From positions 25,349 to 89,348 of the forward strand of contig CAYSAC010000001.1 in NCBI GenBank assembly GCA_964428815.1: DNA of 64,000 bases. The letters are read 5' to 3'. Position 1 is the first letter of the stretch, and every line of letters starts with the position of its first letter. The notes below the pieces were generated by a model, which ran no database searches, was not told the DNA's origin, and was given only the letters and a program-made list of their open reading frames with translations. Below are positions 3,998 through 52,875 of the stretch, piece after piece. Source of the stretch: an uncultured Acidimicrobiaceae bacterium. GTDB lineage: Bacteria; Actinomycetota; Acidimicrobiia; Acidimicrobiales; CAYSAC01. A program made the translations under genes and the position numbers.

Positions 3998-4499
3998 TCA
4001 AGCGCTCTCGAGCGGGTTGGCCCTCTCGATCGACTTGAAGGACTGGAGCCACTGCGCCCCGCCGAATACCGCCGACGCCACCCGCCGGTTGTTGAACACG
4101 CGACCGACAGCTGCCTGACGGAGCCGAGTCGTGCGGTCCCGATCGCCCAGACAGCCGTAGAGCGCGAGCAGGAGCAGCGGCCCCGCGGCGCTCAGGTCAC
4201 GCATCTGGTTCTTGGTCACCGCCATCGAGATGCGGTTGGTGGGGTCCGCCAGCACCGCCGTGCCGCCCGCACCCCCCGACCCGAACGTCCGGGCCCCGAG
4301 CCCGAGCGACATCAGCAGTGGCGGCGGGATCGAGAAACCCAGTGCAAAGCCGCCGCCCTTGATTCCCTCGGTCGGATCGCTGAAACCGGCGGATCGACTC
4401 GGGAGAGACGAACTGATGCTTTTCCAGCGAGCCGGCCTCGGCCAACACCGCGTATGACGGCGCGGCCACGGCGGCGGGCGTCGTCGCGCCGCTACACAT
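3998..4499 (-). pseudogene. Frameshifted remnant of a serine hydrolase (class-C beta-lactamase/esterase family), C-terminal half
   Basis: Two minus-strand frames carry consecutive family-typical segments: SYAVLAEAGSLEKHQFVSPESIRRF (frame of ORF 4197..4499), then DPTEGIKGGGFALGF...RTFGSGGAGGTAVLADPTNRISMAVTKNQM (frame of ORF 3998..5155). The switch lies near 4375-4385. No intact N-terminal SxxK region follows upstream. Confidence 0.55.
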
Positions 4500-5010
4500 G
4501 AGCCAATGCCGAATGCTTCGTCCTCATGATCGCCTCTCATAGTTCGCAGGTCGCGGTCCTTCCCATGAGTCCTGGCGTGCAGGTGTCGGTGCCGGCGCGG
4601 CCTTGGATGGAGTCGAAGCCGGCGCCGCCGATCATGACCGTGACGAACGCGCGTCGCCCGTTCCCTCGAGGATGGAATCGAGCGAAAACCTTCATGTATC
4701 TCCCACCTTCGTAGCGCTGCCGGAACGCGATCACAGAGAGCCGTCGCGAGGTCTTGACGAGCAACTCGCCGCGACCCTCCTCCGTCGCCGAAACGATGTC
4801 GAGACACATTCCAAACGGTGACGATGTGCGTGGTCACGCTGAACTGCGCGATCGGGTCCACCTGGATGTCGCTGCCGGCCACCACCAGCCGCGTGTGTTC
4901 ATGCCGTTGCCCGGGTTTCCTCCTTACGTCGCGCAGCGCGAGCACGTCGCCGCGAACGGCTACGAGGGCTTCCAGCTCGCGCCCGACGGCTAGCTCCCAG
5001 CGTTCCGCGT

Positions 5011-5055
5011 CGCGTTGGTCGCGTTGGCGCCTGGCGTCTGGCGTCTGGCGTCTGG
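5011..5055. repeat. Short tandem repeats: 9-mer x2 (cgcgttggy, 5011-5028) followed by 7-mer ctggcgt x3.5 (5031-5055)
   Basis: Read directly: cgcgttggt cgcgttggc gc ctggcgt ctggcgt ctggcgt ctgg. The repeats sit exactly at the 5' edge of the nitroreductase fragment. Confidence 0.85.
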
Positions 5056-5286
5056 AGCTTCCAGCTCGCCGCCCGCGCTCGTGGCTTGGGCTCGGCCTGG
5101 ACGACGTTCCACCTGGTCCACGAGCAGCAGGTTGCGGAGATCCTCGGCATCCCACCGACCGTGACGCAGATCGCGCTGCTCCCCGTCGCGTTCTACACCG
5201 GCGACTCCTTCTCCCCGGCGCCGCGCCGCCCCGCGCACGAGATCACCTACGCGAATGGCTGGAAGGAGCCGGTGTTCGACCGCTGA
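5056..5286 (+). pseudogene. 5'-truncated nitroreductase-family fragment (C-terminal ~75 aa only)
   Basis: Frame-1 translation SFQLAARARGLGSAWTTFHLVHEQQVAEILGIPPTVTQIALLPVAFYTGDSFSPAPRRPAHEITY matches only the C-terminal third of nitroreductases. Upstream in-frame sequence is repeat junk. Confidence 0.5.
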
Positions 5287-5298: not shown

Positions 5299-6288
5299 TC
5301 ACGCGCTCGGGCGGCGGGGCTCCATGCCAGCGGCGCGATAGACCGCATCGATCACGCGCATGTTGGCGACCGCGTCGTCAACGCCGGTGAGGATCGGCTC
5401 GTCGCGCAGCACGGCGCCAGCGAAGGCTCGCAACTGGAACAGGTAGGAGGCGTCGCGTGTGAACCGCTCGCGGCGAGTCCCAGTGGGAGTGGTCACCTTC
5501 ACTCGGTGGACGAACTGTGGCGCCGTGACGTTGAGCGCCCGTATCCCACCATGCTCGCCGTGCACGCGAAGCCCGAGGGACAAGACATGTCGAGAGAACA
5601 TCGACACCCGCAGGTGGCCCGTCGCCCCACCGGGCAGCCGGAGCTCGGCCTCGGCGAGCCGGTCGACACCAGGGAAACGCTCTGAGGTCCGGGCGGACAC
5701 GACCTCGGGCTCTTCGCCAGCGAGGCTTCGGATCTGGTGGATCGCGTAGCAGCCGACGTCCATGAGCGTGCCACCGGCCAACGAAAGATCCCAGCGGATG
5801 TCGCCCTTGGGGAGCAGCGGAAAGCACATCCAGGCCTCGATGCGCTGCACGGTCCCGATCTCCCCCGACCGAACCACCTCGACCAAGCGCTGGAACAGCG
5901 TGTGATACCGGTAATGGAACGCCTCCATGCACACCCGCCCGCTTCGACGAGCGACCTCGGCCACCTTCTCGGCCTCCTCGGCATTGGCGGTGAAGGGCTT
6001 CTCGCAGAGCACGTGCTTGCCCGCCTCGAGCGCGGCGATCGTCCACCGCCCGTGCAGGCCGTTGGGCAGCGGGTTGTAGATGGCGTCGATGTCTGGATCG
6101 GCGATCAGCTCGTCGTAGCTCCCGAACACCCGCTGGATGCCCCGCTTCGTTGCGTACGCCTCGGCCCGCTTGCGATCACGCGCCGCGATGGCCGAGACGT
6201 CCACCTCGTCGACCCGGGCGGCCGGTTTCATCAGCGCCTGATTGGTGATGCGCGCAGCCCCGAGCACGCCGATGCGGAGAGGACCCAT
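5299..6288 (-). CDS. Gfo/Idh/MocA-family NAD(P)-dependent oxidoreductase
   Basis: N-terminal Rossmann segment LRIGVLGAARI, then the EKP motif (HVLCEKPF) and FHYRYH, as in Gfo/Idh/MocA proteins. Confidence 0.85.
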   Translation of the reverse strand: MGPLRIGVLGAARITNQALMKPAARVDEVDVSAIAARDRKRAEAYATKRGIQRVFGSYDELIADPDIDAIYNPLPNGLHGRWTIAALEAGKHVLCEKPFTANAEEAEKVAEVARRSGRVCMEAFHYRYHTLFQRLVEVVRSGEIGTVQRIEAWMCFPLLPKGDIRWDLSLAGGTLMDVGCYAIHQIRSLAGEEPEVVSARTSERFPGVDRLAEAELRLPGGATGHLRVSMFSRHVLSLGLRVHGEHGGIRALNVTAPQFVHRVKVTTPTGTRRERFTRDASYLFQLRAFAGAVLRDEPILTGVDDAVANMRVIDAVYRAAGMEPRRPSA

Positions 6289-6345
6289 GCCGACAATCTC
6301 GCGCGAGACGAGCGCGGTCAGCGCCTCCAGGTCCCGAGGCAGCTG

Positions 6346-7044
6346 TCAGTCCGGCAGCTTGCCGCGGAACCTGAGCACGTCGAAGTCGGCTCCTGGCGTG
6401 CGCTCGCCTGCGAGCGCGACTGCCGGCTCATCCCAGTGGTCGAGGTCGACGACGTCGCCGAGGGGCCGGCGCCGCACCGGACCGTGCTTCCCGCGCGGCC
6501 AGCCGAGGACGACGTGGCCGGCGAGGAGCCAGTCGTCTGGGACGCCGACCGCGTCGCGCAGCACCTGCTCACCGCCGTAGGAGGCCCAGCTGGTGATGCA
6601 GGCGCCGAGCCCCTGGGCGCGGGCGGCAAGGAGGAAGTTCTGCATCGCCGGGTAGATGGACCCGCCGAGCAGGATCTCCGAGGCGGTCTCGTACCGGTAG
6701 GTGCAGAACAGCACGGAGGTGCGCTCGCCAGCCTGATCGTGGAGCTCGTAGGTGGCACGGTTGTTGCGGGCGAACCGGCTGTTGTCGTCGTCGGCCGGAC
6801 GGGTCATCCCGTAGACGGGCTCGATGACGGCGAGGGCACGGCGCGCCGCCTCGGCGACGGCGACCCGCTGCGCTGGCGACCGGAGGACCACGAACCTCCA
6901 TGCTTGGGCGTTGGCACCGTTGGGAGCCCAGGATGCCGCTTCCAGGCATCGCGTGAGGGTGGCGTCGTCGACGGGCTCGTCGGTGAACCGGCGGATGGTG
7001 CGGGCGGTCGAGAGCACATCCCAGACGTCGTTCGAAGCTGGCAT
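6346..7044 (-). CDS. Nitroreductase-family protein
   Basis: RTIRRFTDEPV...APNGANAQAWRFVVL...AMQNFLLAARAQGLGACITSW are standard nitroreductase motifs. A paralog lies at 58051..58644. Confidence 0.85.
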   Translation of the reverse strand: MPASNDVWDVLSTARTIRRFTDEPVDDATLTRCLEAASWAPNGANAQAWRFVVLRSPAQRVAVAEAARRALAVIEPVYGMTRPADDDNSRFARNNRATYELHDQAGERTSVLFCTYRYETASEILLGGSIYPAMQNFLLAARAQGLGACITSWASYGGEQVLRDAVGVPDDWLLAGHVVLGWPRGKHGPVRRRPLGDVVDLDHWDEPAVALAGERTPGADFDVLRFRGKLPD

Positions 7045-7119
7045 GCGCGAGGTCTACCAGCAGTCTGCGGACCTCCATGACGGCGGTGTGAACGTCGCCG
7101 TGGTGGAGGTGGCAGCGGG

Positions 7120-7866
7120 TCAGGGCACCGTGCAGGTGAGCCCGCCATCGATCGGGATGACAGCGCCAGTGAGGAACGGCGCGCGATCGGATGCCAGGAA
7201 GCAGGCGAGCTCGGCAACCTCTTCGGGTTCGCCGGCGCGCTTCATGGGCGCGCCCTCGACCAGCTGCGGAAACTTCTCGATCGCGGCGCGGCCGCCGGAC
7301 AGCTCGGTGATGATCAGGCCAGGGCAGATGGCGTTGGCGCGGATGCCCTTCGTCGCGTACTCGATGGCGGCTTGCTTCGTGAAGGCGATGACGCCTGCCT
7401 TGGAGGCGCAGTAGATCCCTACGGGCATCTTCGAGCCGTTCATGCCTCCGGTGGAAGACCAGTTGATGATGGCGCCGCCTCCGGTCGGCAGCATCGTGCG
7501 GATGCCGTGCTTGGTGCCGAGCATGACGCCGCGCAGGTTCACGGCCATGATCCGCTCGTATTCGTCGACGGTGACGTCCGCCATGCTCCCGCCGCCGCCG
7601 ATGCCGGCGACGTTGAGCACGGCATCGACCTTCCCGAACGCCTCGAGGGCGGCAGCGAACATCGCCTCGACGTCCTCCTCCTTCGAGACGTCGCCGTGGA
7701 ACGGGACGAAGGCGTCGCCGAGCTCGTCAGCCGTCTCCTGCTCGCGGCCGCTGATGTCGGCGCCGAGCACCCTCGCTCCCTCGCGCACGAACACCCGCGA
7801 CGACGCCCGGGCCATGCCTGATCCGGCGCCGGTGATGACGGCGACCTTCCCGTCGAGCTCTCCCAT
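7120..7866 (-). CDS. Short-chain dehydrogenase/reductase (SDR)
   Basis: Track ORF trimmed to the ATG at 7864-7866, preceded by GGAGGAG. TGAGSGMA Rossmann motif, NVAG, YCASKAG (YxxxK). Confidence 0.9.
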   Translation of the reverse strand: MGELDGKVAVITGAGSGMARASSRVFVREGARVLGADISGREQETADELGDAFVPFHGDVSKEEDVEAMFAAALEAFGKVDAVLNVAGIGGGGSMADVTVDEYERIMAVNLRGVMLGTKHGIRTMLPTGGGAIINWSSTGGMNGSKMPVGIYCASKAGVIAFTKQAAIEYATKGIRANAICPGLIITELSGGRAAIEKFPQLVEGAPMKRAGEPEEVAELACFLASDRAPFLTGAVIPIDGGLTCTVP

Positions 7867-7913
7867 CGACTCTCCTCCGATTCGTTGTTCTCGTTGCTCG
7901 GACGTCGTTCCGC

Positions 7914-8381
7914 TCAGCCCGACGCTGCCGCGCGGACGGCGTCGATGATGCCCTGGTAACCGGTGCACCGGCACAGGTTGCCGGAGAGGGCCACGCGGAT
8001 CTCGTCGTCCGTCGGGTCCGCGTGGTCCCGAAGAAAGACGGTGGCCGAGAGCACGAACCCGGGTGTGCAGAACCCGCACTGCAGGCCGTGGTGCTCGCGG
8101 AACGCCTCTTGGATCGGCGAGAGCCCTCCGTCGGGAGAGCTGATGCCCTCGATGGTGGTGACGTCGGTGCCCTCGGCCTGGACGGCGAACATCAGGCACG
8201 ACCGGACCGCCTCTCCGTCGACGAGCACGGTGCAGGCTCCGCAGACGCCGTGCTCGCACCCGATGTGCGTGCCGGTGAGCTCGCACCGCTCCCGCAGGAA
8301 GTCCGCCAGCGTGAGCCGGGGCTCCGCCGTGGCGTGACAGCTCGTCCCGTTGACCCGCATCTCGATCCGCACCTCAGCCAC
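7914..8381 (-). CDS. Mo-hydroxylase small subunit, (2Fe-2S)-binding (CoxS/XdhC-type)
   Basis: GCEHGVCGACTV...C and CGFCTPG...CRCTGY double 2Fe-2S motifs. GTG start at 8379-8381 gives an 8-nt overlap with the upstream stop (GTGGCTGA). Confidence 0.9.
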   Translation of the reverse strand: MAEVRIEMRVNGTSCHATAEPRLTLADFLRERCELTGTHIGCEHGVCGACTVLVDGEAVRSCLMFAVQAEGTDVTTIEGISSPDGGLSPIQEAFREHHGLQCGFCTPGFVLSATVFLRDHADPTDDEIRVALSGNLCRCTGYQGIIDAVRAAASG

Positions 8382-9249
8382 CGCGTGCCTCCTCGCTTGC
8401 TGCTCGCCATGCGTTCGCGACCATCGCCGCGCCGACTCGCCGCCGGTAGTCGGCGGAGCCGTGGAGGTCGGACGGCACGGCGTCGAGCGCGGACATGGCG
8501 AGCGCGCCGAGATCGTCCGCATCGACATCACTGACAGCGGCGCCGAGCACGGCTGCCTCGGCTGCCGACGCCCGCTCCGGGGCCGACCCGAGGCCGAGCA
8601 GCCCGATTCCGCAGCGCTGCACCCTGTCGTCGTCGTCGAGCTGCAGCGCGAGGGCCGCGCCGGCGATGGCGAAGTCGCCGTGACGACGGGCGAACTCCTC
8701 CACGGCGAAGCCGCACCGGCCCCGCCACTCCGGAAACGCGACGCCGCTGAGCAGCTCGTCGTCCGCGAGAGCGGTGGTCCACATGCCGGTGAAGAACTCG
8801 CCGGCGGGCACCGTCCGCGCCCCGGAGGACGCGAGCACCTCGAGCTCTGCGTCGAGGGCCAGAGCGACTGCGGGGTACTCGGCGGCAGCGTCGGCGTGTG
8901 CCAGCGAGCCACCGATCGTTCCCCGGTTGCGGATCTGGAAGTGGCCGATGAACGGCGTCGCCCGAGCGAGCAGCGGGACTGCATCAGCCACCTCGACGGA
9001 GCGTTCGATCGCCGTCTGCGTCGTGCCCGCCCCGATCCAGACCCCGCCGTCGCGCTGCTCGATGCCGCGGAGCGAAACGATGCGGCGAAGGTCGACCAGG
9101 TGCTCGAAGACCGCGAGGCGAAGGGCGAGCATGGGGATCAGGCTCTGGCCGCCGGCCAGCGGCTTCGCTACGTCGCCGAGCTCGGCCAGCAGCGACACCG
9201 CCTCCTCGGCGCTCTCGGGCGCGTGGTACGCGAACGGGGCGGGCTTCAT
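8374..9249 (-). CDS. Mo-hydroxylase medium subunit, FAD-binding (CoxM-type)
   Basis: MKPAPFAYHAP...PLAGGQSLIPML is typical of FAD-binding molybdopterin-dehydrogenase subunits. ATGA overlap with the large-subunit stop at 9246-9249. Confidence 0.9.
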   Translation of the reverse strand: MKPAPFAYHAPESAEEAVSLLAELGDVAKPLAGGQSLIPMLALRLAVFEHLVDLRRIVSLRGIEQRDGGVWIGAGTTQTAIERSVEVADAVPLLARATPFIGHFQIRNRGTIGGSLAHADAAAEYPAVALALDAELEVLASSGARTVPAGEFFTGMWTTALADDELLSGVAFPEWRGRCGFAVEEFARRHGDFAIAGAALALQLDDDDRVQRCGIGLLGLGSAPERASAAEAAVLGAAVSDVDADDLGALAMSALDAVPSDLHGSADYRRRVGAAMVANAWRAASEEARGG

Positions 9250-11567
9250 TGGCTCGCAGCGTCCTGCACCAGCTGCGCGATGGCCGAGGGGCTCAACGGC
9301 AGGCGCGTGATCGTCACGCCCAACGGCGCGAGCGCATCCGCGACCGCGTTCACGACTGCTGGCGGCGCGCCGATCGCTCCCCCCTCGCCGACGCCCTTGT
9401 AGCCGCCCGGCCCGGGCGACGGCGTCTCGACGTGGCCGAACTCGATCCGTGGCACGTCGGTCGACGTCGGCAGGAGGTAGTCCATGAACGTCGTGGTGAG
9501 CGGGTTGCCGTCCTCGTCGTAGGCGAGGTGCTCATGGAGCACGCCGCCGATGCCCTGGACGGTCCCGCCAGCGATCTGGCCTTCCACGACGTTCGGGTTG
9601 ATCATCGGGCCACAGTCCTCGCTCACGATGTAGCGGAGGAGCGTGACGTGGCCGGTCACGACGTCGACCTCGCAGGTGCAGACGTGCGTCGCGTTTGCCC
9701 AGATCATCGGGGCGCGTGCGCGGTAGCGGGCGCTGGCCTCCAGGCCCGGGGGTAGCTCGGGCGGCAGCTTGTGAGGCTCGAAGTACGCGAGGTTGGCGAC
9801 CTCGGCCATGGACAGCCCGATCGTCGGCGTCCCCCGCACGCTCGCTCGTCCGTCGGCAAGCTCGATGTCATCCTGTGCCGCTTCGAGCTGGTGGGCGACG
9901 ATGGCCGCCACCCGCTCGCGAAGGATCGCCGCGGTGTCGGCGATGGCCCCGGCGAGCATCGAGGCGCTCCGGCTGCCGCCGGTGCCGGCGCCGAAGGGAG
10001 TCACCGCGGTGTCGCCCTGGATCGTCCCGACGTCGGCGACATCCACGCCGAGGGCATCGGCCGTCAGCTGCACGACGGTCGTCTCGAGGCTGTTGCCTGT
10101 CGACCCGCCAGCAACGTAGACGTTGACCTTGCCGGACGGTTCGATGCGGATGGTGGCGCCCTCGCTCCCGTAGTACGGCTGCGCGGTCGTCGTCGGCTCG
10201 ACATAGGTGCACGTGCCGACACCGAGGTACCGGCCGGCAGCTCGCGCCTCGGCCTGCTCGCGCCCGAAGGCCTCGTAGTCGAGCATCGCCAGCGCCTGCT
10301 CGAACGTCTCCTGGGGCGTGATGTCGCTGTAGGGCATGCCGTTCGGGTTCGCGACCGGAAGCTCATCGCGCCGGAGGAGGTTCCGCCGGCGGAGCTCGAC
10401 GGGGTCGATGCCGATGCGCCGCGCCGCGATGTCGAGCAGCACCTCGCGTGCCAGGGACTCGAACTGCCAGGGCCCGCGGTACGCCGTTCGCCCCGTCGTG
10501 TTCGAGAACACCGACGTGGACGTCCAGCCGCCCTTGGGGACCCGGTAAGGACCCGGGAACAGCATCCCCACCGCGGCGCCGGTGCCGACCGGCCATGGCG
10601 TGGGGTAGGCGCCGATGTCCTGCACGTGGTCGATGCGAGCGGCGAGGATCCGGCCGTCCTCGTCGAACGCCATGCGGGCGTCGCCGTGCTCGTGGCGCGA
10701 CTGGCCGGCGGCCAGCAGGTTCTCGCGGCGGTCCTCGATCCACTTCACGGCGGCGGGCAGCTGCATCGCGGCGAGGGCGATGCAGACGTCCTCGCGCAGC
10801 GGCACGACCTTCTGCCCGAAGCCGCCACCGGTGTCGCGCATGATGACGCGCACCTTGTGCTCTGAGATGCCGAGCACCCGGGCGAGGAACATGCGGACTT
10901 CGTGCGGCGCCTGCGTTGCCGACCAGATCGTCATCTCGTCGCCAGACCACTCGGCCACGATCCCCCGGGTCTCGATCGGAACGGGGGCGTAGGCCTGTTG
11001 GAAGATCGTCTCCCGCACGTCGTGCGCTGCCCCGGCGAAGACGGCCTCGTCCTCGTCAGAGGCCGGGGCACCCATCGTGCCGGCGACGTTGCCCGGGTAC
11101 GCGTCGTGCACCAGTGACTGAGAGCCTTGCGCCGCGACGTAGTCGACGACCGGTGGCAGCGGGTCGTAGTCGACCTCGACCAAGTCAGCGGCATCCTCGG
11201 CGATGTACCGATCAGACGCGATGACGAGCGCCACGGGATCACCTACGAAGCGCACCTCGTCCTCGGCCATCGGAGGTCGCGGTGTGTCCGGCACCTGCGG
11301 CATGGACGTGTACCAGGACTCGCGCACGCGAGGGTTCAGATCAGCGGCAACGAACACCGCATGGACGCCCGGCAGCGCCCGGGCCGCGGTGAGGTCCATG
11401 CCCGCTATCCGCGCCCGAGCGAACGAGCTGCGGACGAAGCACGCGTGCAACATGCGCGGCCGGGTGATGTCGTCGACGAAGGTGCCTCGGCCGGTGAGGA
11501 GCCGGGCGTCTTCGACGCGATGCACTCGAGTTCCCGAGAACCGCCCGGCGACGCTGCCTGTCGTCAC
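9246..11567 (-). CDS. Mo-hydroxylase large subunit (xanthine dehydrogenase/aldehyde oxidase family, molybdopterin-binding)
   Basis: N-terminus RVEDARLLTGRGTFVDD, GGGFGQK motif. The AYRGPWQ loop is neither the form I nor the form II CODH signature. GTG start at 11565-11567 overlaps the P450 stop (GTGA). Confidence 0.88.
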   Translation of the reverse strand: MTTGSVAGRFSGTRVHRVEDARLLTGRGTFVDDITRPRMLHACFVRSSFARARIAGMDLTAARALPGVHAVFVAADLNPRVRESWYTSMPQVPDTPRPPMAEDEVRFVGDPVALVIASDRYIAEDAADLVEVDYDPLPPVVDYVAAQGSQSLVHDAYPGNVAGTMGAPASDEDEAVFAGAAHDVRETIFQQAYAPVPIETRGIVAEWSGDEMTIWSATQAPHEVRMFLARVLGISEHKVRVIMRDTGGGFGQKVVPLREDVCIALAAMQLPAAVKWIEDRRENLLAAGQSRHEHGDARMAFDEDGRILAARIDHVQDIGAYPTPWPVGTGAAVGMLFPGPYRVPKGGWTSTSVFSNTTGRTAYRGPWQFESLAREVLLDIAARRIGIDPVELRRRNLLRRDELPVANPNGMPYSDITPQETFEQALAMLDYEAFGREQAEARAAGRYLGVGTCTYVEPTTTAQPYYGSEGATIRIEPSGKVNVYVAGGSTGNSLETTVVQLTADALGVDVADVGTIQGDTAVTPFGAGTGGSRSASMLAGAIADTAAILRERVAAIVAHQLEAAQDDIELADGRASVRGTPTIGLSMAEVANLAYFEPHKLPPELPPGLEASARYRARAPMIWANATHVCTCEVDVVTGHVTLLRYIVSEDCGPMINPNVVEGQIAGGTVQGIGGVLHEHLAYDEDGNPLTTTFMDYLLPTSTDVPRIEFGHVETPSPGPGGYKGVGEGGAIGAPPAVVNAVADALAPLGVTITRLPLSPSAIAQLVQDAASQ

Positions 11568-12781
11568 CCGGGGAGCACCACCGGAAGGGTCTCCCAACCG
11601 CGGACCGTCGAGGTGGGAGCGAGCGTGGCCTTGTCCGTGTCGACCTCCCACTCGGGGAAGCGCTTGAGGATCTCGTCGAGTGCCACCCGTCCCTCGAGGC
11701 GAGCGAGCGCGGCGCCGAGGCAGAAGTGGGGGCCGTAGCCGAAGGTGAGGTGCTGGCCGTCGGTGCGGTGGATGTCGAACCGGTCCGCGTCCGGGAAGCG
11801 CCGGTCGTCGCGGTTGGCTGCGCCGATGAGGAACAGGATCGCGTTGCCGGCCGGAACCGTCTGGCCATGGAGCTCGACGTCCTTGGCGACGTAGCGGCCG
11901 ACGTGCGGTGCCGGCGGCTCGTAGCGGAGCAGCTCCTCGATGGCGCCCGGGATGAGGGCGGGGTCCTCGACGAGCTCGCGCCGCTGGTCGGGGTGGTCGG
12001 CGAGCACCTTGCCGGCCCAGCCGATGAGCCGAGTCGTGGTCTCGTTCCCGGCACCAGCAACGACCGTGATGTAGGTGAGGAGCTCCTCCCGTCGCAGCCG
12101 TCGGATGGTGCCGGTCTCGTCCTCGAACTCGGCGTTCAGGAGGTCGGTCATGATGTCGTCGGATGGGTGCTCGGCCCGCCAGTCGATGTACTCCGCGAAC
12201 TGGTCGCTGTGGTTGGCGACCTCCAACGTCTCCATGGGCTTGCCCGCCTCGGTGCGGAGGTTGGCGTCGACGGTGTCGCGGATCGCCTGCTGGTCCTCCT
12301 CCGGGATGCCCAGGAGCATGCCGATCACCCGCATGGGCATCTGCGCGCCGATGTCGGCGACGAAGTCGAACCCGCCGGTGCCGACGATGGGGTCGAGGCT
12401 CGCGGCGCAGAACTCGCGGATCTTGGGCTCGAGCGCCGCCACCTTCTTCGGCGTGAACACCCGCGACAGCAGGCTGCGGTGGATGGTGTGGGTCGGCGGA
12501 TCCTCGAAGATCACGACCCCGGGCGGCATCTCGATGTTCGCCTTGATCAGCTCGAGGATCCCGCCCCGCCCGGAGATGAACGTGTCGCGATCGACGAGGC
12601 CTCGCTCGACGTCGGCGAAGCGACTCACCGCGTAGAAGTCGTGCGGCTCGTTGTAGTAGAGCGGCGCCTCTTCCCTCAGCCGGCGGAACACCGGGTACGG
12701 GTCGGCGTCGATTCCGACGTCGTAGGGGTCGTAGTAGACGTCGCTGCCAGTGGTGGTCGTCACCCGCGCTCCCTCGTCCAT
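11564..12781 (-). CDS. Cytochrome P450
   Basis: Heme-thiolate motif FGYGPHFCLGAALA, EELLRY (ExxR), AGNETT I-helix motif. Confidence 0.9.
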   Translation of the reverse strand: MDEGARVTTTTGSDVYYDPYDVGIDADPYPVFRRLREEAPLYYNEPHDFYAVSRFADVERGLVDRDTFISGRGGILELIKANIEMPPGVVIFEDPPTHTIHRSLLSRVFTPKKVAALEPKIREFCAASLDPIVGTGGFDFVADIGAQMPMRVIGMLLGIPEEDQQAIRDTVDANLRTEAGKPMETLEVANHSDQFAEYIDWRAEHPSDDIMTDLLNAEFEDETGTIRRLRREELLTYITVVAGAGNETTTRLIGWAGKVLADHPDQRRELVEDPALIPGAIEELLRYEPPAPHVGRYVAKDVELHGQTVPAGNAILFLIGAANRDDRRFPDADRFDIHRTDGQHLTFGYGPHFCLGAALARLEGRVALDEILKRFPEWEVDTDKATLAPTSTVRGWETLPVVLPG

Positions 12782-12843
12782 CGGATCCCCAACTAGTTTG
12801 ATGTCATACTAAAGTGTCTTGAAGCACGGGGCCAGAGGAGGTC
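12782..12843. promoter_or_regulatory. Divergent promoter region between two P450 genes, with an AT-rich core at 12791-12823
   Basis: This is the only AT-rich patch in the neighbourhood (aactagtttgatgtcatactaaagtgtcttgaa). It lies between divergent starts at 12781 (-) and 12844 (+), each with a nearby SD (GGGGA; AGAGGAGG). No precise -35/-10 assignment is possible. Confidence 0.5.
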
Positions 12844-14094
12844 GTGATCGTGACAGATCTGGTGACCGCGAACTTCTTCCGCGACCGATCCGTGCAAGAC
12901 GACCCGTACCCGTACTTCGACGCGCTGCGGGCCACGTCACCGGTGTGGCAGGAGCCGCACTTCGGCGTGTTCATGGTGACCGGCCACGACGAGGCGCTGG
13001 CCGTCTACAACGACGCGGCGACCTTCTCGTCCTGCAACGTGGTGAGCGGGCCGTTCGTGCGGTTCCCCGAGCCGTTCGACGGCGACGACGTGAGCGAGGT
13101 CATCGAGCGCAACCGCGAGATGCTGCCGTTCAGCGACCAGCTTCCCTCCTTCGACCCTCCTCAGCACACCGCGCACCGAGCGCTGATGATGCGCCTCTTG
13201 ACCCCAGGACGGCTGCGGGCCAACGAGGAGTTCATGGAGCAGCTCGCCGACCGCCGGCTACAGGAGCTCGTCGAGCAGGGCGGGTGCGAGTTCATCAGTG
13301 CCTTCGCCGAGCCGTTCACGCTTCGGGTGATCGCGGACCTGGAAGGCGTCCCCGAGTCCGATCACGGGCTGTTCGCCGACCGCCTGAGCAAGGGGTCCGA
13401 GGCGCTCGAGCACAAGCCGCTCGAGTTCCTCTACGAGCAGTTCACGGCGTACATCGAGGACCGTCGCCGTGCACCGCGCGACGACATCATGACGGCGATG
13501 GCCTCCGCCGCCTTCCCAGACGGGTCGACGCCCGACGTGAGAGACGTCGCGCTGCTGGCCGCGAACCTGTTCTCCGGCGGCCAGGAGACGACCGTCCGCC
13601 TGCTCTCGTTCGCGCTGCGGATCCTCGGGGAGCGGCCCGACATCCAGGAGCGGCTGCGGAGCGATCGCGAGCGCATCCCGAACTTCATCGAGGAGACGCT
13701 TCGGTTCGAGAGCCCCCTGCGTGCGCAGTTCCGCATGGCCAAGGTGACGACGGAGGTCGCCGGCGTCCCGATCCCGGCCGGGAGCACGATGCTCCTCCTG
13801 CCGGGAGCGGCCAACCGCGACCCGCGCCTGTTCGAGGACCCGGCCGAGTTCGACCTCGACCGCGACAACGCCAAGTACCACGTGGCCTTCGGCCACGGCA
13901 TCCACCACTGTGCTGGCGCCCACCTCGCGCGTGCGGAGGGTCGGATCACCATCAACCGGCTCCTCGACCGCACCTCGAACATCACGATCTCGGAAGAGGT
14001 GCACGGGCCGGCCAGCGATCGCCGCTACGCCTACCTCCCGACCTACTTCCTCCGCGGCCTCGCGAACCTCACCATCGAGCTCGCACCTGCCTAG
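12844..14094 (+). CDS. Cytochrome P450 (paralog group with 36164..37441 and 56012..57298)
   Basis: GTG start 7 nt after AGAGGAGG. FGHGIHHCAGAHLA heme motif, GGQETT I-helix, ESPLR (ExxR). Confidence 0.9.
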   Translation: MIVTDLVTANFFRDRSVQDDPYPYFDALRATSPVWQEPHFGVFMVTGHDEALAVYNDAATFSSCNVVSGPFVRFPEPFDGDDVSEVIERNREMLPFSDQLPSFDPPQHTAHRALMMRLLTPGRLRANEEFMEQLADRRLQELVEQGGCEFISAFAEPFTLRVIADLEGVPESDHGLFADRLSKGSEALEHKPLEFLYEQFTAYIEDRRRAPRDDIMTAMASAAFPDGSTPDVRDVALLAANLFSGGQETTVRLLSFALRILGERPDIQERLRSDRERIPNFIEETLRFESPLRAQFRMAKVTTEVAGVPIPAGSTMLLLPGAANRDPRLFEDPAEFDLDRDNAKYHVAFGHGIHHCAGAHLARAEGRITINRLLDRTSNITISEEVHGPASDRRYAYLPTYFLRGLANLTIELAPA

Positions 14095-14879
14095 CTCTTG
14101 TCGGCCTGCGAGGCGCCCAGCATCAGCTTGAGCTGCGACGCCGGGGGTCCGGCGGTCGTTCCACCATCGACCGGGAGCACGATCCCGGTGATCTGCGCGG
14201 AGCGATCGCTGGCGAGGAACAGGGCCGCCTCGGCCACGTCCTCCGGTCGCCCCTGGCGCGGGAGCGCCTGGGTGAACTTCAAGACGGCGTCCATGTCGTA
14301 GCTCGTCATCGCCGTCTGGATCTGACCGGGGACGAGGCAGTTCACGCGGATGCCGTACTGCGCGAGGTCGAGCGCGATCGAGCGCGAGATGTGGATCACC
14401 GCGGCCTTCGTGGCTCGATAGGTGATGAGCCCGGCACCGGCGTTGATCCCCGCAGTCGACGACGTGTTGATGATCGACCCGCCGCCGTTCGCCTTCATGT
14501 GCCGGGCAGCCCGCTGCGCGCCGAGCATGACGCCCAGCACGTTGATGTCCATCACTCGCCGGAAGTCGCTCAGGTCGTCGTGCAGGAAGCGGGCCATCGC
14601 GCTGGCGACGCCGGCGTTGTTCGCCATCACGTGCAACCCGCCGAACCGCTCGACGGTGAAGTCGACGAGGGCCTGCACCTGGTCGGCGTCGGTGACGTCG
14701 GTCTGCTTGAAGGCGGCAGCGTCGCCGAGCGCGGCGGCAACCGCCTCGCCGGCATCGGCATCGATGTCGGCGATGACGACCCGCGCTCCCTCCTCGACGA
14801 AGCGTTCGACGGTGGCCCGACCGATGCCGCTGCCGCCACCGGTGACGATGGCGACCTTGCCTGCGAGCTCGTCAGCCAT
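14091..14879 (-). CDS. SDR
   Basis: ATG at 14877-14879 (MADELAGKVAIVTGGGSGIG) overlaps the upstream stop by 8 nt (ATGGCTGA). NNAG, YRATKAA. Confidence 0.9.
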   Translation of the reverse strand: MADELAGKVAIVTGGGSGIGRATVERFVEEGARVVIADIDADAGEAVAAALGDAAAFKQTDVTDADQVQALVDFTVERFGGLHVMANNAGVASAMARFLHDDLSDFRRVMDINVLGVMLGAQRAARHMKANGGGSIINTSSTAGINAGAGLITYRATKAAVIHISRSIALDLAQYGIRVNCLVPGQIQTAMTSYDMDAVLKFTQALPRQGRPEDVAEAALFLASDRSAQITGIVLPVDGGTTAGPPASQLKLMLGASQADKS

Positions 14880-16548
14880 CGCGATCCACCCCTGCAGCAT
14901 GCCGCGCCGCGATGTACCCGAACACCATCGTGTTGGCGATGCTCGCCCCCGGCCCGAGGTAGTGGCGGCCCATCACCGTGGCGGTGCTGTTCCCAGTGGC
15001 GTAGAGCCCCTCGATGGGCTGGTCGTGCTGGTCGAGCACGCGGGCGTGCTCGTCGGTGACGAGGCCCCCGCAGGTGCCGATGTCGCCGGGCAGCACCTCG
15101 CACGCGTAGTAGGGCGGCTCGTCGATGGGACCGAGACACGGGTGCACCTTGCGATGGGGGTCGCCCAGCGACCGGTTGTACGCCGACTCGCCGCGGCCGT
15201 AGTCGGGGTCGACCCCGCTCGCGGCATGTTCGTTGAAGTGCTCGACGGTCTCGATGAGCCCGTCCGCGTCGATACCGCACAGTGCGGCGAGGTCCGCGAG
15301 CGTCGGCGCCTTCTTCAGCCGCCCGCTCTCGAGCAGCTTCCGAGGGAAGTGCCCGGGGCGGGAGCGCAGGTGGGCGTACCGCTTGCGGTACCGATCATCG
15401 AAGATCAACCAGCAGGGCACGGCGCGGCTCGTCTTGTCGCGCTCGTACATGGCCTTGCCCACCTCCATGTACGAGTTCGATTCGTTCACGAACCGCCGCC
15501 CGGCTGCGTCGACGTAGATGGTGCGTGGCCGCTGGCGGGCCTGGTCGAGCGTCGACTGGCCGAAGCGCCCGGTCTTCGGCGAGGGCAGCCACCAGGCCTC
15601 GTCCATCAGCGCGGTCTGCGCGCCCAGCCGCATCGCGGCTTCGATCGCCTCGCCGGTGTCGCCGGGGTTGGACATCGACCACTTGCCCTCGTTGGGCTGC
15701 TCGCCTCCATACCGCAGGCGCATCTCGCGGTTGTGGGCGAAGCCGCCCGCCGCGATCAGCACCCCCTGGCGGGCCTCGACCGATACGGGTGCGCCGTCGC
15801 GCACCGTGCGCACCCCCACCACCCGGCCGTCTTCCACGATCAGCTCGTCGAGCGGGGCCTCGGTCCAGACGGGGATTTTCATATCCACGACGGCGATGGC
15901 CAGCATCTGACCGATGAGCGACGCGCCGTTGGTGAGCAGGGCCTGCCGTCGGGCCTTGGCCGCGAAGGTGCGGAGCACCACTCGAGCCGAGATCGCGAAG
16001 CTGCGGATGCTCCGGTTGTAGTTCGACAGCGACCGGGCCTCGTTGGTCATCACGGCCAGCCCGAGGCTCTGCGCCAGCCCGGGCTGCAGCTTCGGCAGCC
16101 ACGGCCCGAGCGCTCGCCCGTCCCACGGCACCGACTCGATGCCGCGGCCGACGTCATGGCCGCCCTTCAGGTTGGAGTAGTAGTCGCTGTAGCCGGGGCA
16201 GGTGACGAAGTGCATGCCGAGCTGCTGGAGGAACGTAGTCATCTCGGGGCCGGCCGTGAGGAACGCATGGCGTCGTTCGAACGACGAGCACGACCCGACG
16301 TCACCGACCACCGTCTCGAAGTGGGCCAAGGCGTCCTCGTACGAGTCAGGCATGCCCTCGGCCTGCATCAGGGGGTTGTTCGGGATCCAGACGATTCCAC
16401 CGGACATGCACGTCGACCCGCCAACCTGGGCCTGCTTCTCGAGGACGAGCGCTTCAGCACCGGCGTCGGCGGCTGCCAGAGCGGCGACCATGCCCCCACC
16501 GCCCGATCCTGCGATCACGAAGTCGACGGCGGTGTCCCACGTCGTCAT
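14872..16548 (-). CDS. FAD-dependent dehydrogenase, 3-oxosteroid 1-dehydrogenase (KstD)-like
   Basis: DFVIAGSGGGGMVAALAAADAGAEALVLEKQAQVGGSTCMSGGIVWIPNN is the dinucleotide-binding N-terminus typical of KstD/fumarate-reductase-type flavoproteins. C-terminal GLYATGN motif. Confidence 0.85.
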   Translation of the reverse strand: MTTWDTAVDFVIAGSGGGGMVAALAAADAGAEALVLEKQAQVGGSTCMSGGIVWIPNNPLMQAEGMPDSYEDALAHFETVVGDVGSCSSFERRHAFLTAGPEMTTFLQQLGMHFVTCPGYSDYYSNLKGGHDVGRGIESVPWDGRALGPWLPKLQPGLAQSLGLAVMTNEARSLSNYNRSIRSFAISARVVLRTFAAKARRQALLTNGASLIGQMLAIAVVDMKIPVWTEAPLDELIVEDGRVVGVRTVRDGAPVSVEARQGVLIAAGGFAHNREMRLRYGGEQPNEGKWSMSNPGDTGEAIEAAMRLGAQTALMDEAWWLPSPKTGRFGQSTLDQARQRPRTIYVDAAGRRFVNESNSYMEVGKAMYERDKTSRAVPCWLIFDDRYRKRYAHLRSRPGHFPRKLLESGRLKKAPTLADLAALCGIDADGLIETVEHFNEHAASGVDPDYGRGESAYNRSLGDPHRKVHPCLGPIDEPPYYACEVLPGDIGTCGGLVTDEHARVLDQHDQPIEGLYATGNSTATVMGRHYLGPGASIANTMVFGYIAARHAAGVDRDG

Positions 16549-16591
16549 CTCACGTCCCCCTCACCGACCTAGCGATGTCGAACAGTCTGCG

Positions 16592-16620
16592 TTGACGATC
16601 CTTCGATGTCAAAGTATTCT
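16592..16620 (+). promoter_or_regulatory. Candidate sigma70/SigA-type promoter TTGACG-17 nt-TATTCT
   Basis: TTGACG at 16592-16597 and TATTCT at 16615-16620, with an exact 17-nt spacer. It lies 30 nt upstream of the amidohydrolase ATG (16651) and its GGGGGAGG SD. Confidence 0.4.
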
Positions 16621-16650
16621 GCCGCCACGCACGAGGGGGAGGCAGGTCGC

Positions 16651-17823
16651 ATGACGGCTCGCACAGGCACGATCACCTATCCGCCTGAGGGGTTCGGTCC
16701 CCCGAAGGATCGCCACGGGAGCGGCACCGGATCGGTCGGTCTGCCGGAAGGCACCGAGGTGTTCTCGGCGGACGACCACATCTCCCTTGCCGAGGACATC
16801 TTCTACGAGCGGTTCCCGGCATCGATGAAGGAGCAAGCACCCCGAGTCGTCTACGACGACGGCGCGTGGACGCTCGCGATCGGCGGGAAGACCTTCCTGC
16901 CGAGGGAGTTCACCGCGGTGCTGATGCAGTACGACCCGTTGGCCGGCGCCGGGACGAACGATCCAGCGGCACGGCTCCGCGAGCTCGAGTCGGACGGCGT
17001 GCACCGGGAGCTCGCATTCCCCAACGCGCTGCTCGGCCTCATGGGCTGGCCAGACAAGGAGGTCCGCGAGCTCTGCTTCCGGATCTACAACGAGCACATC
17101 GCCGAGCTGCAGGAGCGGTCGAACGGCCGCTTCTACGGCGTCGGGATGGTCAACTGGTGGGACGGCGACGGTTGCCGCGACACGCTCGCCGAGATGAAGC
17201 AGCTCGGCATCACGACGTTCTGGATGCCGCTCAAGCCCGGCGCCGGCGACGATGGCAAGCCCATCGACTACAACAGCCCCGCGATGTTCCCCGTGTGGGA
17301 GGCGATCGAGGAGAGCGGCCTCCCGGTGGCGCACCACATCGGCGAGGCACCGCTGGCCTCGCCGTGCCGGGACAACGGCATCCTCGTGGGGATGGTGCAC
17401 AACGTCGCGCCGTTCCGCGAGATGTTCGGGCGCTACGTGTTCGGCGGGATCCTCGACCGCCAGCCGGGCCTGCGGGTCGGCTGGTTCGAGGGAGGCATCA
17501 ACTGGGTCCCCGCGGCGATCCAGGACGGCGAGCACCTGTACGCGTCCCTGCAGCACATGGCCGACCACGAGATCGAGCACGAGGTCGCCCACTACTGGCA
17601 GCACCACATGTACGCCTCGTTCGTGGTCGATCCGCTCGGCCTCGAGATGATCGACCGGATCGGCGTCGACCGGGTGATGTGGTCCTCGGACTACCCGCAC
17701 AACGAGAGCACCTTCGGCTACTCGGATCGGTCGCTCGCCAGCGTCGTCGAGGCGGTCGGTCCCGAAGCGGCCACCAAGATCGTCAGCACGAACGTGATGA
17801 CGTTCCTCGGCCTCGATCGCTGA
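16651..17823 (+). CDS. Amidohydrolase_2-family metal-dependent hydrolase/decarboxylase
   Basis: Start moved to the ATG at 16651 (SD GGGGGAGG 8 nt upstream). N-terminal SADDH motif, C-terminal MWSSDYPHNESTF motif. Confidence 0.85.
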   Translation: MTARTGTITYPPEGFGPPKDRHGSGTGSVGLPEGTEVFSADDHISLAEDIFYERFPASMKEQAPRVVYDDGAWTLAIGGKTFLPREFTAVLMQYDPLAGAGTNDPAARLRELESDGVHRELAFPNALLGLMGWPDKEVRELCFRIYNEHIAELQERSNGRFYGVGMVNWWDGDGCRDTLAEMKQLGITTFWMPLKPGAGDDGKPIDYNSPAMFPVWEAIEESGLPVAHHIGEAPLASPCRDNGILVGMVHNVAPFREMFGRYVFGGILDRQPGLRVGWFEGGINWVPAAIQDGEHLYASLQHMADHEIEHEVAHYWQHHMYASFVVDPLGLEMIDRIGVDRVMWSSDYPHNESTFGYSDRSLASVVEAVGPEAATKIVSTNVMTFLGLDR

Positions 17824-19058
17824 TGGGTGCCGAGCTCACCCTGGCGCCGGCCGCTCTCGACCTCCCCGCGGAGCCAGACCTGGCGCGCATGCGGCGCGAG
17901 CGCGGCACGCGGCTTCGATCGACGATGGCCGACAAGGGCATCGACGCGCTGGTCCTGCTCGCCAACGCCAACGTGTCCTACGCCACCGGAGCCAGCTGGC
18001 CGCTGAGCGACGCTGGACGCGCCAACGTCGAGCGCCCCGTGGCCGTCGTCCTCGCGGGCGACGAGATGCCTCACCTGTTCACCCCGTTCCTCGCAGACGC
18101 CGCCGGCCAGCTCGAGCTCGACGATGATCATCTGCACGGCCCGACCTACCTCGACGTCGACGAGGGCGTCGAATCCTTCGCCAAGGCGCTGGCCGATCTC
18201 CTGCCTGCGAGCGCGACGGTCGCGATCGACGACCTGACCGGGGCGATGCACGGCGCACGGGACCTGCTCTTCGCCGACTGGCCGCCTCGGGCCGCGAGCG
18301 AGGTGATGAGCGCGGCTCGGGTGGTGAAGACCCGCGACGAGCTCGCCTGCCTCCGCCACGGACTCCGGATCACCGAGCAGGCCATGGCCGAGGTGCAGGC
18401 GCGGCTCACGCCCGGTGCGCGCCAGACCGATCTCACGGCGATCTTCCTGCACCGCGTCTTCGAGCTCGGCGCCGAGGCGAACGTCCTCGATCCGATCTGG
18501 CAGGTGATGCCCGACCGGCAGGCAGATCTGCCGTGGACCGTCCACGGTGACATCGCCTGCCCGCTGCTGAGCACCGAGCGGGCGCTGGCCAAGGGGGACG
18601 TCCTCTGGGTCGACACCGGCATCAGCTTCGGCGGGTACCACTCCGACTTCGGCCGTACGTGGGTCGTCGGGGCCGAGCCGACCGCTCGCCAGCAGGCCCA
18701 GCACGACCGGTGGCTCGAGATCAACGACGCGGTCCTCTCGGTGATGCGCGCCGGCGTCGCCGCCTCGGACCTCACCGCTGCCGCGATGGAGGTCTGCGGC
18801 GGCGAGCGGCCCTGGATGGCGCACTTCTACCTCGGCCACGGGCTCGGGCTCGACAGCGCGGAGGCGCCCTACGTCGGCACCGACCTGGGCGACGGCTACG
18901 ACCGGCGGCTGCTCCTCGCCGCCGGCATGGTGCTCATGATCGAGCCGGTCGTGTGGGACGAGGGCCACAGCGGCTACCGGTCCGAGAACATGATCGTCGT
19001 CACCGACGACGGGTGCGTGAACCTCAGCGACTACCCGTACGACCCCTATGGCGACTGA
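17823..19058 (+). CDS. M24-family metallopeptidase-fold protein (Xaa-Pro peptidase/creatinase-like), ligand set intact
   Basis: ATG overlaps the upstream TGA (TGATG). VDTGISFGGYHSDFGRTW, LGHGLGL, MIEP and RSEN supply the D, D, H, E, E positions. Confidence 0.85.
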   Translation: MGAELTLAPAALDLPAEPDLARMRRERGTRLRSTMADKGIDALVLLANANVSYATGASWPLSDAGRANVERPVAVVLAGDEMPHLFTPFLADAAGQLELDDDHLHGPTYLDVDEGVESFAKALADLLPASATVAIDDLTGAMHGARDLLFADWPPRAASEVMSAARVVKTRDELACLRHGLRITEQAMAEVQARLTPGARQTDLTAIFLHRVFELGAEANVLDPIWQVMPDRQADLPWTVHGDIACPLLSTERALAKGDVLWVDTGISFGGYHSDFGRTWVVGAEPTARQQAQHDRWLEINDAVLSVMRAGVAASDLTAAAMEVCGGERPWMAHFYLGHGLGLDSAEAPYVGTDLGDGYDRRLLLAAGMVLMIEPVVWDEGHSGYRSENMIVVTDDGCVNLSDYPYDPYGD

Positions 19059-23542: not shown

Positions 23543-23551
23543 GTTCAGCGA

Positions 23552-24073: not shown

Positions 24074-24115
24074 TCGGGCCGGAGTGGGCCCCCGTTGGGG
24101 CTACGGTCCGCTGTG

Positions 24116-52864: not shown

Positions 52865-52875
52865 GTTTTCTCCGT

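Follow-up and report, generated by a model that had tools for sequence, protein, structure and literature searches.

Why would a cytochrome P450 be encoded as the first gene of an operon for a molybdenum (Mo) hydroxylase? The question is raised by a stretch of 64,000 nucleotides (nt) from an uncultured Acidimicrobiaceae bacterium (contig CAYSAC010000001.1, positions 25,349 to 89,348; hereafter the window), in which a P450 gene overlaps the gene for the large subunit of a three-subunit enzyme of the xanthine dehydrogenase family and is followed on the same strand by a short-chain dehydrogenase (SDR) gene. Our reading, to which we give a probability of roughly 0.6, is that the locus encodes successive oxidations of one hydrophobic substrate by the P450, the SDR and the Mo enzyme.

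Organization of the locus

The G+C content of the window is 66-72% throughout, and its closest relatives are metagenome-assembled genomes (MAGs) of Acidimicrobiales/Acidimicrobiia. The genes in question form a run on one strand (lengths in amino acids, aa):

11564-12781, minus strand: P450A, cytochrome P450 (Pfam p450, E 4e-31)
9246-11567, minus strand: CoxL-like large subunit of a Mo hydroxylase, 773 aa (Pfam Ald_Xan_dh_C, MoCoBD_1 and MoCoBD_2)
8374-9249, minus strand: CoxM-like medium subunit binding flavin adenine dinucleotide (FAD), 291 aa (Pfam FAD_binding_5 and CO_deh_flav_C)
7914-8381, minus strand: CoxS-like small subunit with two [2Fe-2S] clusters, 155 aa (Pfam Fer2 and Fer2_2)
7120-7863, minus strand: SDR1, short-chain dehydrogenase, 247 aa (Pfam adh_short / adh_short_C2)
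6346-7044, minus strand: NTR1, nitroreductase-family flavoprotein, 232 aa (Pfam Nitroreductase)
5299-6288, minus strand: Gfo/Idh/MocA NAD(P)-dependent oxidoreductase, 329 aa (Pfam GFO_IDH_MocA and C-terminal domains), which closes the run

The Pfam assignments agree for all seven genes with the identities given in the original prediction, which had been made from the translations alone. Direct reading of the junctions likewise reproduced the overlaps it described: the stop codon of P450A and the GTG start of CoxL share 4 nt in GTGA (11567-11564), the CoxL stop and the CoxM start share 4 nt in ATGA (9249-9246), and CoxM and CoxS overlap by 8 nt (GTGGCTGA, 8381-8374). The CoxS start is preceded by a GAGGAGG Shine-Dalgarno sequence; other in-frame starts lie at 8372 and 8360. 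The genes behind CoxS are closely spaced, as had been stated, the gaps being 50 nt (CoxS-SDR1), 75 nt (SDR1-NTR1) and 57 nt (NTR1-Gfo/Idh/MocA); the range reported earlier was 47-75 nt. In high-GC operons a 4-nt start/stop overlap is the most frequent type of junction and nothing unusual by itself. Here, the overlaps indicate co-transcription and make translational coupling probable. A terminator scan of the operon found no terminator-like site within the same-strand run, and scans for promoters, terminators and inverted repeats, run on both the operon and the divergent intergenic region upstream of P450A, detected nothing.

P450A is 405 aa long when read from ATG 12781 and 399 aa from GTG 12763. 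The latter is probably the start, because most homologues at 78-88% identity have a length of 398-399 aa and a GAGGGAG sequence is situated 5 nt upstream. The heme-thiolate motif FGYGPHFCLG (residue 347), the ExxR motif (ELLR, 283) and the I-helix motif AGNETT (244) with its acid-alcohol pair are all present. Solved relatives reach only about 230 bits at best (CYP109Q5, TbtJ1, CYP130), and no named NCBIfam equivalog matched P450A.

Class of the molybdenum enzyme

The CoxL domains PF01315, PF02738 and PF20256, which comprise an a/b-hammerhead and two domains binding the Mo cofactor, all exceed their gathering scores. CoxM combines PF00941 with PF03450 and carries the AGGQSL and TIGGS motifs, and CoxS combines PF00111 with PF01799 and contains the cysteine motifs CEHGVCGAC...C (C-x4-C-x2-C-x11-C) and CGFC...CRC (C-x2-C-x31-C-x-C). 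By domain content CoxLMS is a member of the xanthine oxidase/Mo hydroxylase family of the three-subunit L/M/S type, with predicted hydroxylase activity. In CoxL, GGGFGQK is found at residue 247, AYRGPWQFES at 362 and GVGEGGAI at 725; the catalytic signatures of P450A and of all three Cox subunits are intact. GGGFGQK and GVGEGG, which contain the active-site Gln and the catalytic Glu, respectively, align with GGGFGQK and GMGES in quinoline 2-oxidoreductase (Qor) and with GVGES in CO dehydrogenase (CODH). Opposite the active-site loop AYRGPWQFE, form I CODH has AYRCSFR and Qor AYRGVGF.

CoxL is close to no characterized enzyme. Its best match in the PDB is Qor (1t3q_B, 1.2e-161), with 320 identities over 761 aligned residues (42%), followed by CO dehydrogenases (8uem, 1.5e-145; 1n5w, 7e-120) and 6-hydroxypseudooxynicotine dehydrogenase (7dqx, 7e-117). 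In a plasmid collection the best homologue is 41% identical, and the best annotated match is a nicotine dehydrogenase at 39%. No NCBIfam model reaches its cutoff for CoxL and no named equivalog was found for any Cox subunit; the top model for CoxL, CoxM and CoxS alike is an archaeal Mo glyceraldehyde dehydrogenase, in all three cases under the cutoff. As far as the alignments go, homology is compatible with either an aldehyde or a heterocycle as the substrate of the Mo enzyme.

An annotation as CoxLMS would suggest an aerobic CO dehydrogenase, and both the strong matches to CODH large subunits and the identical subunit composition would agree with it. Form I enzymes are recognized by an AYXCSFR loop and the gene order coxMSL, form II proteins, the role of which is unclear, by AYRGAGR and coxSLM (PMC13203968). 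The enzyme in the window is not a CO dehydrogenase, because its loop lacks the Cu-binding Cys of AYXCSFR. Scores far below the form I cutoffs (TIGR02416, 515.8 bits versus 991; NF040766, 555 versus 950) and the gene order L-M-S instead of coxMSL also stand against form I, and oxidation of CO is in our judgement extremely improbable. Form II was rejected as well, the loop not being AYRGAGR and the order being L-M-S rather than coxSLM. Nor is CoxL an orthologue of Qor, with 42% identity and a loop reading AYRGPWQFES here and AYRGVGFTAG in Qor. Loop, scores and matches thus agree with the earlier statement that the large subunit belongs to neither CODH form and is of the hydroxylase/aldehyde oxidoreductase type.

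To delimit the group, we collected 80 loci, one genome per species, in which CoxL is 70-80% identical to that of the window. GGGFGQK and KGVGEGGAIGA are near-invariant in these relatives, and the loop reads AYRGPW, followed by Q (rarely A/M), F/Y (rarely M/L), E and S/T. A full-text literature search did not find the motif AYRGPW. Judged by its sequence, CoxL represents a distinct clade of the family, marked by an AYRGPW(Q)(F/Y)E loop and with no characterized member.

Conservation of the neighbourhood of CoxL

The 80 loci span Acidimicrobiia, Streptosporangiales, Streptomyces, Pseudonocardiales, Frankiales, Rhodococcus and Nocardia, a breadth that makes 70-80% identity of CoxL strikingly high, and 56 of them have complete flanks. 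They were searched by local tblastn, a gene being assigned to the P450A subfamily when it was at least 55% identical to P450A and within 8 kb of CoxL. Such a gene (mostly 61-78% identical) occurs in 44 of the 80 loci and in 36 of the 56 with full flanks, among lineages that include Acidimicrobiia, Actinomadura, Spirillospora, Actinocorallia, Thermomonospora, Streptomyces and Trebonia. It is by far the most frequent type of P450 in the CoxL flanks; one P450 subfamily normally makes up a small minority of an actinomycete's P450s. The P450/CoxL neighbourhood, whose conservation the original prediction had proposed to examine, is kept in many relatives.

An SDR is linked to CoxL in 49 of the 80 loci, and 37 contain both an SDR and a P450A-type gene. 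Of these SDRs, 18 are of the SDR1 type and 31 of the mycofactocin type (a single representative, from locus L066, reaches 414 bits with TIGR03971, the cutoff being 300). Relatives of SDR1 (55-88% identity) adjoin CoxL or P450A in many loci, and in Acidimicrobiia no gene is linked more tightly to the CoxL clade and to P450A than SDR1. The SDR1-CoxLMS block of the window is orthologous to blocks in loci L006, L007 and L010, where SDR1 is 82-88% identical and the block adjoins another P450A paralogue (57-63% identical).

The arrangement of the genes varies considerably. The P450 is located directly upstream of CoxL on the same strand in L013, L034, L070 and L074, with gaps of 20-83 nt, while CoxL is directly upstream of the P450 on the same strand in L057, L075, L076 and L077 and in 11 metagenome contigs. 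Two loci (L046 and L069) feature the order P450-CoxM-CoxS-CoxL, in some the P450 is divergent from CoxL, and L057 reads SDR-CoxL-P450-TetR. Streptomyces, Actinomadura, Spirillospora and Actinocorallia share a stereotyped row in which TetR is followed by CoxL-CoxM-CoxS-(CoxG)-SDR-P450-(ferredoxin); the CoxG and the ferredoxin of this row are confirmed by Pfam, and the mycofactocin-type SDR of L066 comes from this group. The subunit order in the AYRGPW clade is mostly L-M-S, with M-S-L in some relatives. Five loci with full flanks (L006, L010, L013, L057 and L076) contain CoxL, an SDR and a P450A-type gene without CoxM or CoxS within 8 kb, so that the linkage follows the catalytic subunit and thus the chemistry. 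The orphan CoxL sits at about 8001-10300 in each of these five.

From the neighbourhoods compared, the conserved core consists of P450A, SDR and CoxL, with CoxM and CoxS usually, though not always, adjacent. NTR1 appears as a local addition outside this core; a relative was detected in one of the 80 loci (L054, 86% identity), directly after a P450A-like gene. The Gfo/Idh/MocA gene is not conserved with the module: at the thresholds used, none of the 160 related loci yielded a relative. Protein distances of CoxL and of the linked P450s correlate (Mantel r 0.64, 0 of 2000 permutations), a result confounded by the species tree and given little weight. Altogether, the gene content of these loci describes a partnership of the P450A subfamily, SDR and CoxL that is old and recurrent across Actinomycetota and fluid in gene order and strand.

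The view from P450A and the origin of the overlap

Centred on the P450, the sample comprised 80 metagenome contigs with a P450 73-84% identical to P450A, many of them only 2-5 kb long. An SDR1-type gene lies beside the P450 in 29 of the contigs and CoxL in 15, mostly abutting. When all P450A-type sequences were clustered, CoxL proved to be often adjacent in sister sub-clusters of the one that contains the window.

Behind the closest P450A orthologues, in loci L083 (88% identity) and L001 (85%), comes a TetR gene whose start codon overlaps the P450 stop in the same GTGA. GTGA is found at the P450A stop at 11564-11567 in the window, at 5949-5952 in L083 and at 11194-11197 in L001, and GTG starts the next gene in each case. 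DNA similarity of L083 and L001 to the window ends exactly at the P450 stop codon. By this comparison, the overlap of a leading P450 gene with CoxL is a lineage-specific local rearrangement at the P450 stop codon. That the P450 is the first cistron, as originally described, is thus true for the window, but it is not conserved: order and strand vary, and the closest orthologues are coupled to TetR. A 27-residue match to the L083 TetR, considered as a possible TetR remnant in the window, turned out to be an out-of-frame translation of the conserved 3' end of the P450 gene.

Neighbouring genes

Further features of the window are:

12844-14094, plus strand: P450B, second cytochrome P450, 416 aa (Pfam p450), divergent from P450A
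12782-12843: divergent intergenic region between P450A and P450B, 62 bp, locally AT-rich (sequence read)
14091-14900, minus strand: SDR2, short-chain dehydrogenase, 269 aa (Pfam adh_short), convergent with P450B
14872-16548, minus strand: 3-ketosteroid-delta1-dehydrogenase-like (KstD-like) flavoprotein, 558 aa (NCBIfam PRK12844, 801 bits versus cutoff 789)
36164-37675, minus strand: fourth cytochrome P450 (Pfam p450, 1.8e-24)
about 50837-53128, minus strand: dimethyl sulfoxide (DMSO) reductase-family molybdopterin oxidoreductase (Molybdop_Fe4S4, Molybdopterin and Molydop_binding domains)
55949-57298, plus strand: P450C, cytochrome P450, 52% identical to P450B
57295-58038, plus strand: SDR3, in a second P450-SDR-nitroreductase row (55949-58644)
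58051-58644, plus strand: NTR2, 72% identical to NTR1, without about 35 residues after GANAQA

P450B, which starts 62 bp from P450A and is 33% identical to it (blastp), was missing from the earlier description. The region between the two genes presumably holds a promoter and an operator; neither a sigma-70 consensus nor an inverted repeat was detected within it. About 20 related loci have a P450B-like gene (45-73% identity) next to CoxL or P450A, relatives of SDR2 (60-71% identity) recur beside P450B-like genes, and P450B, SDR2 and amidohydrolase_2 are frequent companions of the module in Acidimicrobiia. In L076, an open reading frame (ORF) at 6002-7207 on the plus strand, with an N-terminus judged by eye to resemble epoxide hydrolases, precedes an SDR-CoxL-P450A-P450B row.

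A catabolic block extends from 14872 to 25336 and encodes the KstD-like protein, amidohydrolase_2, two M24/creatinase-like proteins, an enoyl-coenzyme A (CoA) hydratase, a double CoA-transferase III, MarR and a second amidohydrolase_2. In rearranged form, a block with KstD-like, amidohydrolase_2, two creatinase/M24-like, enoyl-CoA hydratase, double CoA-transferase III and MarR genes resides beside the 88% identical P450A orthologue in L083 (6573-15730). The KstD-like/CoA-transferase block probably represents the downstream pathway. Elsewhere, the window encodes an acyl-CoA dehydrogenase and synthetase, a thiolase/ChsH2-like protein, a Rieske oxygenase, a Baeyer-Villiger monooxygenase-like protein and luciferase-like monooxygenases. 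This wider context, the KstD-like block included, favours an alicyclic or lipid-like substrate.

Some observations on the remainder of the island may be added. At 90% identity, NTR1 clusters with sequences from many metagenome contigs (30 in the cluster), and it is far more conserved than its neighbours; no named NCBIfam equivalog was found for it. NTR2 may be defective because of the residues missing after GANAQA. A TetR gene (55313-55927) is divergent from P450C. The DMSO reductase-family protein is a second Mo enzyme in the island, unrelated to CoxLMS; its true start is uncertain, given the overlap of the called ORF with an acyl-CoA dehydrogenase gene (52876-54021). Between 3900 and 5290, no convincing gene was found. 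Fragments resembling a serine hydrolase/beta-lactamase-like C-terminus are present within 3998-5155 on the minus strand, and a 66-aa ORF with high G+C at third codon positions (GC3) at 5086-5286 on the plus strand resembles a nitroreductase-like C-terminal piece. These fragments may be scars of rearrangement at the distal end of the operon.

Probable successive oxidation of one substrate and its alternatives

P450A, SDR1 and CoxLMS are encoded on one strand and their co-location is kept among relatives. The linkage to the catalytic Mo subunit and to an SDR of the alcohol dehydrogenase type fits a stepwise oxidation of one carbon, most likely from C-H via alcohol and carbonyl to acid, where we infer both the order of the reactions and an aldehyde as substrate of the Mo enzyme. 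P450A would hydroxylate a C-H bond, most simply that of a methyl group, to the alcohol, the SDR would oxidize the alcohol to the carbonyl compound (aldehyde), and the Mo enzyme would add water-derived oxygen at the carbonyl carbon to yield the carboxylate. Two electrons would leave Mo through the [2Fe-2S] clusters and FAD and reach a respiratory acceptor rather than the P450; where CoxG is present, the acceptor would probably be a quinone reached via CoxG. P450A would be served by an ordinary small ferredoxin encoded outside the window, and the 4-nt overlap with CoxL would ensure co-expression. A three-subunit enzyme of the xanthine dehydrogenase family that oxidizes an aromatic aldehyde has precedent (PMC6692525). 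The top NCBIfam model, although below its cutoff, describes an aldehyde oxidoreductase and was counted in favour of an aldehyde. Tandem chemistry had been one of two suggestions in the original prediction, and the conserved linkage to the P450, together with the still tighter one to the SDR, lends support to it.

Several points weigh against successive oxidation. No P450A-type gene is found nearby in 20 of the 56 CoxL loci with full flanks, and in the P450 sub-cluster that includes the window (18 sequences at up to 22% distance, many on short contigs) CoxL is adjacent only in the window. Qor, the solved enzyme closest to CoxL, acts on an N-heteroaromatic ring, which it hydroxylates, and not on an aldehyde. 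SDRs, including the mycofactocin-type carveol dehydrogenase group, more often yield ketones, and ketones are left untouched by Mo hydroxylases. Furthermore, catabolic islands of Acidimicrobiia are dense in P450 and SDR genes, as exemplified by the four P450s in the window, and this makes coincidental adjacency likelier there.

It is conceivable that the locus serves the catabolism of a heteroaromatic compound, the Mo enzyme hydroxylating a ring carbon next to nitrogen, as in the quinoline, quinaldine and nicotine pathways, while P450 and SDR act elsewhere on that molecule, for instance on a side chain or by hydroxylating the ring a second time. The chemistry would be tandem in this case too, without an aldehyde as substrate of the Mo enzyme. 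Qor and 6-hydroxypseudooxynicotine dehydrogenase are among the best solved relatives of CoxL, nicotine dehydrogenase is its top annotated plasmid match, the loop opens with AYRG as in Qor, and in pathways for N-heterocycles a monooxygenase usually acts after a Mo hydroxylase. All of these enzymes are, however, only about 40% identical to CoxL, and the loop diverges after AYRG. Moreover, the most constant partner is an alcohol dehydrogenase-type SDR (49 of 80 loci), which has no typical role beside ring hydroxylases, and the nearby KstD-like, CoA-transferase, enoyl-CoA hydratase, acyl-CoA dehydrogenase and thiolase/ChsH2-like genes point to alicyclic or lipid substrates, so that we regard a heteroaromatic substrate as possible but doubtful. 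The genes could also lack any functional link, P450A and the Mo enzyme stemming from separate pathways that were joined by rearrangement in a gene-dense island. The break of synteny exactly at the P450 stop, where the closest orthologues (85-88%) carry TetR, the restriction of CoxL adjacency to the window within its P450 sub-cluster and the gene fragments at 3.9-5.3 kb, which suggest that the distal end of the operon was rearranged in the past, would be in line with this. Chance is nevertheless unlikely to account for the 44 of 80 species, among them Streptomyces and Actinomadura with their sparse P450s, in which a P450A-subfamily gene lies no more than 8 kb from a CoxL of this clade, for the prevalence of this one P450 type in the CoxL flanks, or for the reappearance of the association in several independent gene orders.

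The other suggestion of the original prediction was that CoxS and CoxM feed electrons to P450A. They would be reduced by the substrate of the Mo enzyme or by NAD(P)H, and translational coupling would match the amounts of the partners. P450A indeed lacks a dedicated ferredoxin locally: the 64-kb window, which holds four P450s, yielded no gene for a ferredoxin, a ferredoxin reductase or CoxG, and no ferredoxin-type Cys motif was found in any high-GC3 frame. The start/stop coupling of P450A and CoxL and the missing CoxG-type outlet for the Mo enzyme would suit the proposal as well. To our knowledge, an adjacent ferredoxin gene is absent for most bacterial P450s in any case. The relatives of the locus count against the proposal. 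A Fer4_13/15 ferredoxin gene (Pfam) sits directly beside the P450A-type gene in 10 related loci, nine of them from Streptomyces, Spirillospora or Actinomadura and the tenth (L025) from a Microthrixaceae MAG of the Acidimicrobiia, where it lies between P450B-like and P450A-like genes. CoxG, a known route to quinone in CODH, is found beside CoxS in 20 of the 80 CoxL loci. The five loci without CoxM and CoxS, the many in which the P450 is on the opposite strand or several genes away, and the closest P450A orthologues, which have no adjoining Cox genes, all speak against the proposal, so that an electron supply to P450A through CoxS and CoxM is not supported and appears very unlikely. A variant, for lineages such as the present one, is a closed redox loop in which the two electrons from aldehyde oxidation by CoxLMS would travel via CoxS and CoxM to the P450 and pay for the first hydroxylation. 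Such a loop, if true, would form a system independent of NAD(P)H; we consider it highly improbable here, and the gene content of the relatives argues against it as a general mechanism.

Comparison with known systems

QorLMS from Pseudomonas putida 86 (1t3q) resembles CoxLMS in the domains of its three subunits, in GGGFGQK, in the catalytic Glu and in a loop that opens with AYRG. It differs in the continuation of the loop (VGFTAG in Qor, PWQFES here), the identity is far below the level of orthologues, and the order in the window is L-M-S. We know of no P450 or SDR partner in the Qor pathway. Form I CoxMSL and form II CoxL-like proteins share family and subunit set with the window's enzyme and align to CoxL with high scores, and differ from the AYRGPW clade in loop and gene order. 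NdhLMS and the 6-hydroxypseudooxynicotine (ketone) dehydrogenase of Paenarthrobacter nicotinovorans are actinobacterial three-subunit Mo hydroxylases of the same subfamily, the nicotine dehydrogenase gene of pAO1-type plasmids being the one with 39% identity to CoxL. In contrast to the enzyme studied here, they are ring hydroxylases for pyridine alkaloids, encoded on a catabolic plasmid and without a partnership with P450 and SDR.

The proposed pathway has parallels in its logic. Cassettes converting methyl to carboxyl groups, such as cymA/B/C for p-cymene and thc (CYP116) of Rhodococcus, combine an oxygenase, an alcohol dehydrogenase and an aldehyde dehydrogenase in one operon. The third enzyme is NAD(P)+-dependent in those cassettes, whereas a Mo/FeS/FAD hydroxylase would take its place here. 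Pairs of an oxygenase and a Mo hydroxylase are represented by Lcp-OxiAB of the rubber-degrading Streptomyces sp. K30 and by mammalian CYP2A6 and aldehyde oxidase, which convert nicotine to cotinine. In both, the oxygenase yields an aldehyde or iminium product that is then oxidized by a Mo enzyme of the xanthine oxidase family. However, Lcp is not a P450, CYP2A6 and aldehyde oxidase are encoded by unlinked eukaryotic genes, neither system has an SDR step, and OxiAB and aldehyde oxidase are unrelated to the AYRGPW clade at clade level.

The chc cluster for aromatization of cyclohexanecarboxylate resembles the region at 7-16.5 kb of the window in that a P450 (ChcA), SDRs (ChcB1/B2) and KstD-like proteins (ChcC1/C2) are encoded side by side. 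Unlike the window, it contains no Mo enzyme, and SDR1, SDR2 and the KstD-like protein score well under the cutoffs of the NCBIfam models for ChcB and ChcC (184 versus 350; 332 versus 900). SDR1 barely reaches a generic glucose 1-dehydrogenase subfamily model (NCBIfam, 215.9 versus 215).

Significance

A full-text literature search found no paper on a P450-SDR-Mo hydroxylase module, and two transcriptome papers on steroid degradation in Nocardioides do not mention Mo enzymes. All component families are already known, as is the cassette of oxygenase, dehydrogenase and aldehyde-oxidizing enzyme as a type of system. What is new is the Mo hydroxylase clade in the place that would fall to the aldehyde-oxidizing enzyme of such a cassette, the signature of this clade and the breadth of the association.

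Few unassigned oxidoreductases are as numerous in genomes and metagenomes as the CoxL-like proteins. In an ocean survey, true form I CODH accounted for 1,924 of 119,560 CoxL-like proteins, and the role of form II was described as unclear (PMC13203968). The invariant loop reported here delimits one clade of CoxL that is 70-80% identical from Acidimicrobiia to Streptomyces. For P450 enzymology, the attractive idea of the Fe-S and FAD subunits of a Mo enzyme acting as a P450 reductase is left unsupported. For the clade itself, a testable hypothesis is provided, namely that a Mo enzyme may replace the usual NAD-dependent aldehyde dehydrogenase in a three-step oxidation, and the module is carried by the culturable Streptomyces hokutonensis R1-NS-10, Actinomadura rifamycini DSM 43936 and Thermomonospora echinospora.

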